Source of the DNA: an uncultured virus (IMG/VR IMGVR_UViG_2627853734_000003)
Taxonomy: Duplodnaviria; Heunggongvirae; Uroviricota; Caudoviricetes
Virus record (IMG/VR): IMGVR_UViG_2627853734_000003
Coordinates: 62,001 to 120,974 of that record
DNA length: 58,974 nucleotides
Reading direction: 5' to 3' (one strand)
This document shows positions 34,370 to 34,503 of the stretch, one piece after another; the first letter of the stretch is position 1, and each line of letters opens with the position of its first letter. The translations under genes were made by a program, and so were the position numbers. The notes under the pieces were generated by a model that did no database searches, had not been told where the DNA came from, and saw nothing but the letters and a program-made list of their open reading frames with translations.

Positions 34370-34412
34370 ATATTATTGTGAATTCAATCGGCGTTAAGCC
34401 TTTAAGGGAGGG

Positions 34413-34503
34413 AGGATTGCATGAGATTCGAACTCATATCTCTGATTTATTTAAGGGGAGGTGTATATAAAATCAGTATTTTACCAACTTAAACTAACAA
34501 TCC
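34413..34503 (-). ncRNA. tRNA-like RNA with a 25-nt expanded anticodon loop
   Basis: Intact acceptor, D and T arms; stem CUGAU/AUCAG encloses UUUAUAUACACCUCCCCUUAAAUAA; no encoded CCA. Confidence 0.75.

Follow-up and report, generated by a model that had tools for sequence, protein, structure and literature searches.

Inserts in the anticodon loops of phage tRNA genes have been described in Lak megaphages, whose 'enigmatic' tRNA introns have predicted lengths of 23-141 nt according to Table S6 of Devoto et al. 2019 (PMC6784885). Here we describe a tRNA-like gene, tRNA-X, found in a 58,974-nt stretch of DNA from an uncultured virus (IMG/VR record IMGVR_UViG_2627853734_000003, positions 62,001 to 120,974; this whole stretch is referred to below as the window). 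tRNA-X keeps an intact tRNA body and carries an enlarged, C-rich anticodon loop, and we find it to be real, conserved inside one phage lineage and unusual. Like the Lak genes, at least as they are portrayed in that paper's account of the introns, it is a phage tRNA gene whose anticodon loop is interrupted, at or adjacent to position 37/38, by an insert that is not a group I intron; it is seen only by intron-aware prediction, is conserved among related phages and has no known mechanism of removal. In the same account the Lak inserts differ from that of tRNA-X in the length range given above, in that some may encode a tRNA and in that insert-free alleles exist, whereas the insert of tRNA-X is 18-19 nt long, unstructured and C-rich, and its host is Clostridium rather than Prevotella; it is by these descriptions that the two are set apart.

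A second point of comparison is provided by the Bacillota small RNAs RoxS/RsaE and FsrA, whose C-rich regions pair with ribosome-binding sites in the passages of PMC8216469 that treat them. RoxS/RsaE, FsrA and CsfG, as characterized there, share with tRNA-X the presence of single-stranded C-rich tracts in the loops of a structured RNA from a low-G+C Gram-positive, but they are transcribed from their own promoter, end at their own terminator and lack a tRNA fold, and tRNA-X is the opposite on each count. What tRNA-X has of this class is the C-rich loop tract, predicted to be unpaired; it shows neither the promoter and terminator of an independent unit nor an above-threshold Rfam match to RsaE/RoxS. 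No Rfam small-RNA family scores above threshold at the tRNA-X locus, the near miss being ncr952 (17.9 bits against a gathering score of 100).

The tRNA cluster of phage T4 includes two stable RNAs of unknown function, species 1 and 2 (rnaC and rnaD). Like them, tRNA-X is phage-encoded and lies in or beside tRNA genes, and we propose that it is also matured by the tRNA machinery and non-decoding; species 1 and 2 belong to another phage lineage and have other sizes, and we know of no C-rich loop in either. In engineered 'tRNA scaffold' RNAs a cargo RNA replaces the anticodon arm, and tRNA-X likewise combines an intact acceptor, D and T body with foreign sequence for an anticodon loop, although the scaffolds are man-made expression tools and tRNA-X is a natural gene. 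Phage T4 also makes the endoribonuclease RegB, whose cleavage of GGAG in ribosome-binding sites turns off early mRNAs. If tRNA-X pairs with Shine-Dalgarno sequences (SDs), as we tentatively propose below, both would be phage factors aimed at SDs, RegB being a protein nuclease and tRNA-X acting by base pairing. We group tRNA-X with the insert-bearing or tRNA-like phage RNAs.

A tRNA body with an enlarged anticodon loop

tRNA-X is encoded on the minus strand, and its coordinates are given on that strand, with 34503 as the 5' end. The gene and the parts of it that matter here are:

34413..34503, minus strand: tRNA-X, a tRNA-like gene of 91 nt (RF00005, 47.6 bits; ARAGORN with introns allowed)
34447..34471, minus strand: enlarged anticodon loop of 25 nt, UUUAUAUACACCUCCCCUUAAAUAA, 26 nt long in the related Clostridium phage D-1873 (sequence, alignment and constrained fold)
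34455..34463, minus strand: CACCUCCCC in the anticodon loop, its CCUCCCC part being 34461-34455
34449..34466, minus strand: 18-nt insert AUACACCUCCCCUUAAAU between tRNA positions 37 and 38 (ARAGORN placement)
34401..34415, minus strand: CCUCCCUCCCUUAAA, a second C-rich tract that takes in the last two acceptor bases, the discriminator and the start of the 3' trailer

tRNA-X scores 47.6 bits with the Rfam tRNA model RF00005, whose gathering score is 29 (E 4e-7, whole window); the cloverleaf is present and a 7-nt loop with a fixed anticodon is not. The body comprises a 7-bp acceptor stem (GGAUUGU, 34503-34497, with GCAAUCC, 34420-34414, including one U.G wobble; the 5' strand is followed by UA), a D arm (GUUU-AAGUUGGUA-AAAU, then A), a 5-bp anticodon stem (CUGAU/AUCAG), a 4-nt variable loop (AGAU), a T arm (AUGAG-UUCGAAU-CUCAU, 34437-34421) and a discriminator U, and CCA is not encoded. 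The original prediction had stated that acceptor, D arm and T arm are intact, that the anticodon loop (34471-34447) is 25 nt long and contains CACCUCCCC, and that the C-rich tract recurs in the trailer; the sequence and the RF00005 match bear out all of these structural statements, the recurrence being CCUCCCUCCCUUAAA at 34415-34401. The trailer starts with CCCUCCCUUAAAGG, and CCUCCCUCCCUUAAA results when the count begins at the last acceptor bases.

With default settings ARAGORN misses tRNA-X and reports only the neighbouring tRNA-Trp(CCA), a point of practical weight for genome annotation with default tRNA finders. With introns allowed, it returns tRNA-X as tRNA-Ile(UAU) with an 18-nt insert at 37/38. 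The flanks of the insert are A/U-rich, so that its boundaries may slide by a few bases.

The C-rich tracts of tRNA-X exceed chance. C makes up 10.8% of the minus strand of the window, and when segments with at least 7 C in 10 nt were counted, 7 were found on the whole minus strand compared with 0.76 on average, and 5 at most, in 200 block shuffles of that strand. Just 3 such segments fall in the ~47.7 kb for which the minus strand is sense, and two of these are the loop and the trailer of tRNA-X; 3 of the 10 occurrences of CCTCC on the minus strand below 47.7 kb fall at the tRNA-X locus. The loop also resembles the 3' end of 16S rRNA, as had been predicted: it has CACCUCC in common with the host-type anti-Shine-Dalgarno tail. 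The 16-mer GGATCACCTCCTTTCT is present in 10 and 13 copies in two same-genus genomes and is the 3' end of 16S rRNA in the one copy inspected. A repeated mobile mini-element was considered and rejected, CCTCCCYTTAAA having 11 matches with up to 2 mismatches against 8.5 expected and, beyond the local copies, none closer than 2 mismatches.

Conservation within one phage lineage

In BLAST searches the tRNA-X region is 87% identical to Clostridium phage D-1873 and matches four large Clostridium botulinum plasmids, one of which is identical across the 136 nt compared. By sequence resemblance, these phage and plasmid matches identify the window as a piece of a c-st/D-1873-type plasmid-prophage, the family being that of the botulinum-toxin-converting Clostridium phages. 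Four distinct versions were compared, those of the window, D-1873, BKT015925 p1 and BKT2873 p1; two more records, an IMG/VR contig and strain 3859/11 p1, equal the window over the compared stretches.

tRNA-X is found in all four variants obtained from c-st/D-1873-type plasmid-prophages and nowhere else among the sequences searched. BLAST returned only D-1873 among phages and only the 4 Clostridium botulinum records among plasmids. A model of the locus, R1, matched one of 17 same-genus genomes (four of which scored only in part), the match in this nearest genome reaching 103 bits over model positions 1-90 with the insert included; 3 unrestricted genomes gave only 17-19-bit matches. Scanning viral contigs with a pattern gave 2 loci, one on the D-1873 contig and the other identical to that of the window, and none of the 8 loci returned by two metagenome scans (0 and 6 loci) and a genome scan (2 loci) is a family member. 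On metagenome contig L012, a 105-nt tRNA-like gene (400-504, minus strand) adjoins a normal tRNA-Glu; its acceptor stem, T arm and CCA are good, about 51 extra nt sit mid-gene and its sequence is unrelated to that of tRNA-X, and ARAGORN misses it even with introns allowed.

The four variants score 47.6, 51.0, 50.4 and 50.3 bits with RF00005. Standard pairs fill 83 of the 84 stem cells, compared with 33-52% after sliding of the 3' partners. Of six variable stem positions, five retain pairing: a T-stem pair is A-U, G.U or G-C, acceptor pair 7-66 is U.G or U-A and a D-stem pair is G.U or A-U. The nucleotides of the tertiary contacts (U8, A14, the D-loop GG and the T-loop UUC-R-A) are likewise kept, the T-loop motif in all four variants and the D-loop GG in three, with AG in BKT015925. 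The earlier argument that intact arms speak against plain decay is upheld by this maintenance of the tRNA fold at 47.6-51 bits, with pairing at 83 of 84 cells and at five of six substituted positions.

The anticodon loop is 25 nt long in three variants and 26 nt in D-1873, and the triplet at 34-36 is UAU in three variants and UGU in BKT015925. CCUCCCC is the sole block of the insert kept in all four. Although the 25-nt loop of BKT2873 differs by 6 substitutions and 2 indel nt, it is more C-rich (CCCUCCCCCCC). The CCUCCCUCCCUUAAA tract is also present in all four variants, with a single C>U change in BKT015925. In folds with the cloverleaf enforced, the anticodon stem has 7 bp in the window and BKT015925, while in D-1873 and BKT2873, where an additional A lets UUUUAU pair with AUAAAA, a 10-bp stem is drawn that buries the triplet; by hand count the basal C-A of BKT2873 is a mismatch and 9 standard pairs remain there. 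These folds leave an apical loop of 15-21 nt, in which CCUCCCC has a predicted probability of being unpaired of at least 0.96 in every variant. From its sequence and predicted folding, the tRNA-X loop does not behave as an anticodon loop.

Proposed function and competing explanations

The reading that we favour, tentatively and as a possibility only, is that tRNA-X is a non-decoding, tRNA-processed stable RNA showing a single-stranded C-rich seed able to pair with G-rich, SD-type sequences. We favour it because the fold is kept in all four variants, because CCUCCCC is kept and predicted to be unpaired in a loop unlike an anticodon loop, and because no insert-free allele, bulge-helix-bulge or named splicing enzyme was seen. 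tRNA-X would be carried by a minus-strand operon transcript that likely comprises a 73-aa open reading frame (ORF), a hairpin, tRNA-X, a C-rich spacer, tRNA-Trp and a 212-aa ORF. Host tRNA-maturation enzymes would excise it, with RNase P acting at the 5' end and either RNase Z or exonucleases, together with the CCA-adding enzyme, forming the 3' end, and the L-shaped body would give the RNA a long life. The anticodon arm would have been rebuilt as a 7-10-bp stem under a 15-21-nt single-stranded loop, from which the CCUCCCC core, along with a similar CCUCCCUCCC tract in the released spacer, could pair with G-rich SD-type sequences in the mode used on ribosome-binding sites by the C-rich-region small RNAs of Bacillota (RoxS, FsrA, RsaE). 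If it works unspliced, tRNA-X would be a natural counterpart of the engineered tRNA scaffolds and a new phage route to ribosome-binding sites.

Several observations weigh against this reading, and the first of them concern the insert. ARAGORN with introns allowed gives exactly tRNA-Ile(UAU) with the insert at the classical intron position, and removal of the insert leaves a textbook 7-nt loop with U33 and A37 that reads AUA, which accounts for 770 of the 1324 Ile codons in 62 ORFs and is the commonest of them (54 per 1000 codons; ACA is used at 23 per 1000). Moreover, the full set of tertiary contacts exceeds the needs of an RNase P substrate. These features, with retention of the whole contact set, fit a working tRNA-Ile(UAU), or tRNA-Thr(UGU) in BKT015925, whose 18-19-nt mini-intron at 37/38 would be cut by an endonuclease and whose loop would be resealed by an RNA ligase, so that the tRNA serves a very frequent codon. 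Lak megaphage tRNAs with unexplained non-group-I inserts are indeed in print, within the sections of PMC6784885 devoted to them. The original prediction did not put forward this intron explanation, which is a live rival and which we judge somewhat unlikely. No fold contains a bulge-helix-bulge motif, the arm being a plain stem with a terminal loop; of the marks of a protein-spliced intron of archaeal or eukaryal type, the position at 37/38 is found and the bulge-helix-bulge is absent. In a 208-kb relative no product is named RNA ligase, RtcB, polynucleotide kinase or splicing endonuclease, many entries there being 'hypothetical', and the 58 window proteins include no Pfam family for a ligase or splicing endonuclease. 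The middle anticodon base differs in one of the four variants, and the discriminator, U73, is not the base that we take to be usual for bacterial tRNA-Ile. An intron would also leave the retention and enlargement of the C-rich core without a reason.

Nor did the four variants, the nearest-genome match or the contigs of 4 runs contain an insert-free allele that could define the splice points. The contigs of the 4 runs cover the locus with the insert present, and none is joined across the insert, though contigs do not reveal RNA forms; one contig has an 18-nt gap, which depth arithmetic places in the spacer (about 34383-34400), outside the insert. A group I intron was rejected, as its core needs some 200 nt or more and the insert is 18-19 nt long with no Rfam intron match. 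If tRNA-X is spliced, protein-dependent tRNA splicing in a bacterial system, the question left by the Lak-phage introns, could be studied in a compact and tractable case.

The next group of points against a non-decoding, SD-pairing RNA is comparative. Covariation analysis is powerless with four sequences, 387 of 500 shuffles reaching the observed score, and no stem pair is altered on both sides simultaneously. The tRNA-X body differs from that of BKT2873 by 6 substitutions in 66 nt and the next gene by 6 in 83 third codon positions; the body evolves at about the third-codon-position rate and is not slow-evolving. tRNA-Trp has merely 1-2 changes in 75 nt. Unlike typical small RNAs, tRNA-X has no promoter-like or minus-strand terminator-like site of its own in the 1.9 kb inspected. 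Its surroundings are:

34370..34412, minus strand: spacer from tRNA-X to tRNA-Trp, 43 nt, about 23 nt of which are absent in D-1873
34295..34369, minus strand: ordinary tRNA-Trp(CCA), CCA encoded, immediately downstream (ARAGORN; RF00005, 64.2 bits)
34506..34533, both readings: conserved 11-bp hairpin ending 2 nt (34504-34505) 5' of tRNA-X
34642..34860, minus strand: upstream 73-aa ORF (phrog_28505)
33620..34255, minus strand: downstream 212-aa ORF, helical protein, phrog_1491 (database label 'tail fiber' unverified)
34421..34492, plus strand: antisense 23-codon ORF behind GGGAGGGAGGA, the frame being 16 codons in D-1873 (1-nt indel)

In D-1873 only 49 nt lie between the stop of the 73-aa ORF and tRNA-X, so that the two are likely co-transcribed. 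The stem of the hairpin is kept among the variants and its loop varies in BKT2873; on the plus strand it looks like an intrinsic terminator, with a U tail, and on the minus strand, where it has no U tail, it would cap the 3' end of the upstream mRNA after RNase P cleavage. This arrangement suits an explanation, which we regard as unlikely, in which tRNA-X is a disabled tRNA kept mainly as an RNase P/RNase Z cutting signal ('punctuation'), or is a slowly decaying relic without a role, the content of its loop being incidental. On one side of such a signal would be the upstream mRNA, ending in the hairpin, and on the other tRNA-Trp and the mRNA that follows it. Consistent with this are its place inside an operon without a promoter-like site of its own and 49 nt from the upstream stop in D-1873, the end of the conserved hairpin 2 nt ahead of the predicted RNase P site, the third-codon-position rate of the body beside the 1-2 changes of tRNA-Trp, and the fact that five pair-keeping changes out of six are near chance (about 0.1 by rough estimate). 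RNase P needs little beyond the acceptor and T arm, yet tRNA-X retains its D arm and tertiary contacts; all four variants still score at least 47.6 bits, and the C-rich core persists, and in BKT2873 grows, against strong A+T pressure. If only a processing signal, tRNA-X would be an ordinary curiosity.

The hairpin also enters into a plus-strand explanation, in which function would lie with the plus strand, as a short antisense RNA or a gene of 23 codons; GGGAGGGAGGA would be its ribosome-binding site, the ATG at 34421 its start and 34506-34533 its terminator. A strong SD does lie 4 nt ahead of the ATG (GTG in BKT015925), 23-24 codons are open in three of the four variants, and the only terminator-like site in 1.9 kb stands directly behind the ORF on this strand. 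However, the substitutions obey RNA pairing and not codon rules, no promoter-like site was found and the neighbouring genes all run in the opposite direction, and we consider a plus-strand function highly improbable. Because the D-1873 indel shortens the frame to 16 codons, we regard the ORF as a by-product, probably an accident of the tRNA sequence.

For the favoured SD-pairing RNA, the remaining points on the negative side concern targets. It had been supposed that such an RNA could mask strong SDs, but a duplex scan of the 208-kb relative yielded no extended specific target: the best non-self site reaches -24.1 kcal/mol compared with -37.4 kcal/mol for perfect antisense, and among the 24 best non-self sites, 12 are SDs of the ordinary, strong kind ahead of ORFs. 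A search with the 14-nt complement returned 13 matches where 2.9 were expected, an excess that any SD-like query would show; besides the antisense itself, none is closer than 2 mismatches. By manual pairing, the best sites match the 16S tail no worse than they match the loop, and SDs of the AAGGAGGUG type pair over 9 nt with the 16S tail and over 7 nt with the loop. The accompanying claim, that many SDs of 'early-type cassettes' here are GGAGGUG or GGGGUG, held up only in part: GGAGGTG precedes the start of an ORF of at least 25 codons at 5 places, and GGGGTG does so at 1. Three of the 5 GGAGGTG places are small plus-strand ORFs at 55.0-56.3 kb. The cassettes in question are a row of very small plus-strand ORFs (32-48 codons) at 54400-56400, each behind AAGGAGGUG or AAAGGGGUG. 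We also considered, by eye, whether the loop pairs in cis, either over 6 bp with the SD downstream or with a G-rich patch upstream, and rejected this, such pairing being conserved in neither BKT2873 nor D-1873.

The most specific form of the proposal, in which tRNA-X, after maturation by RNase P and RNase Z, would serve as a riboregulator built as a natural 'tRNA scaffold', an anti-Shine-Dalgarno mimic that masks strong ribosome-binding sites or draws off tail-attacking nucleases, appears doubtful to us. Literature searches returned no description of tRNA-X, of a tRNA-borne anti-Shine-Dalgarno loop or of such a class of phage regulator; a paper naming p1BKT015925 together with tRNA merely counts tRNA genes in the relevant part of its text (PMC3098183).

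The resemblance to the 16S tail also bears on a decoy function, which we think quite improbable. The tRNA body, or the 16S-tail-like CCUCC loop, would here absorb an endoribonuclease, that is, an anticodon nuclease or a toxin cutting tRNAs or the anti-Shine-Dalgarno tail, deployed by host defence or toxin-antitoxin systems. Endoribonuclease toxins do occur in the element family (ToxN in the window, PemK/MazF-family and PIN-family in the 208-kb relative), the partner of tRNA-X is a spare tRNA-Trp, a gene type that phages may carry to offset tRNA loss, and CACCUCC is common to loop and tail. There is no sign here, however, of a nuclease with such specificity, and the 16S resemblance is just 7 nt long and in BKT2873 is reduced to CCUCC plus extra C. 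No link was seen between tRNA-X and the toxin genes of these elements.

The downstream gene, the window and its relatives

tRNA-X and tRNA-Trp are the only two tRNA-type genes of the 208-kb relative. The 2009 record of D-1873 annotates tRNA-Trp only, and in three RefSeq records two locus tags are skipped between the flanking genes, so tRNA-X may already be annotated there as an RNA gene. The phrog_1491 family of the downstream 212-aa protein occurs in 744 phage records, and two of its members are neighbours of both a tRNA gene and an HU gene: that of phiCD211, where the tRNA is tRNA-Ser, and that of a C. tetani plasmid, where it is tRNA-Trp. We rejected a role of the 212-aa protein as a tRNA enzyme: it has no Pfam family, its sole NCBIfam match is TrhO at 16 bits against a cut-off of 170, and its helical model (predicted local distance difference test score, pLDDT, 83) has no PDB match at E <= 0.001. 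Descent of tRNA-X from the tRNA-Trp of the C. tetani plasmid was not convincing either; the D arms are alike, but mean column identity is only 68%.

The window is A+T-rich, with a G+C content of 22-33% in 2-kb steps, and its genes lie on the minus strand up to ~47.7 kb. Pfam and similar searches identify among its proteins a TubZ-type tubulin, a C3-type ADP-ribosyltransferase, ToxN, TnpB, a terminase and antirepressors. The C3-type mono-ADP-ribosyltransferase gene (6480-7229, minus strand; Pfam ADPrib_exo_Tox) is named C3 in a related plasmid and, together with TubZ (45104-46171), marks the window as a c-st/D-1873-type plasmid-prophage. A ToxN/AbiQ-family toxin gene (5454-5987, minus strand) is preceded by about 2.5 tandem copies of a ~36-nt unit (AAAAAGUC...GAGGAGCU) at about 6040-6200 on the same strand; gene and repeats are arranged as in a type III toxin-antitoxin RNA array, and every full copy contains ACCUCC. 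A RAGATH-18 RNA match of 64.6 bits (20487-20556, minus strand) lies just 3' of a TnpB/IS605-OrfB gene (20612-21787, minus strand) and probably forms that element's guide-RNA (omega RNA) end.

Some 650 nt of the minus strand (32750-33400) are without a sizeable ORF. A G+C-richer patch at about 33270-33000 holds a T-loop-like GUUCGAAUCC and the third of the C-rich segments (33034-33025), and the region is possibly another structured RNA; against Rfam it gave nothing at E <= 1 except chance-level matches. At 32696-32774, just upstream of a BRO-family gene, there is a long imperfect palindrome (ACAUACACAUA...UGUGUGUGUAU) with a sub-threshold match to a microRNA-precursor model on both strands. In the related plasmid NZ_CP063960.1 (27663-30731) the annotation splits nrdD, encoding anaerobic ribonucleotide reductase, into two pieces around a GIY-YIG nuclease gene, an arrangement that looks like an intron with a homing endonuclease, and the same plasmid has two group II intron maturase genes.

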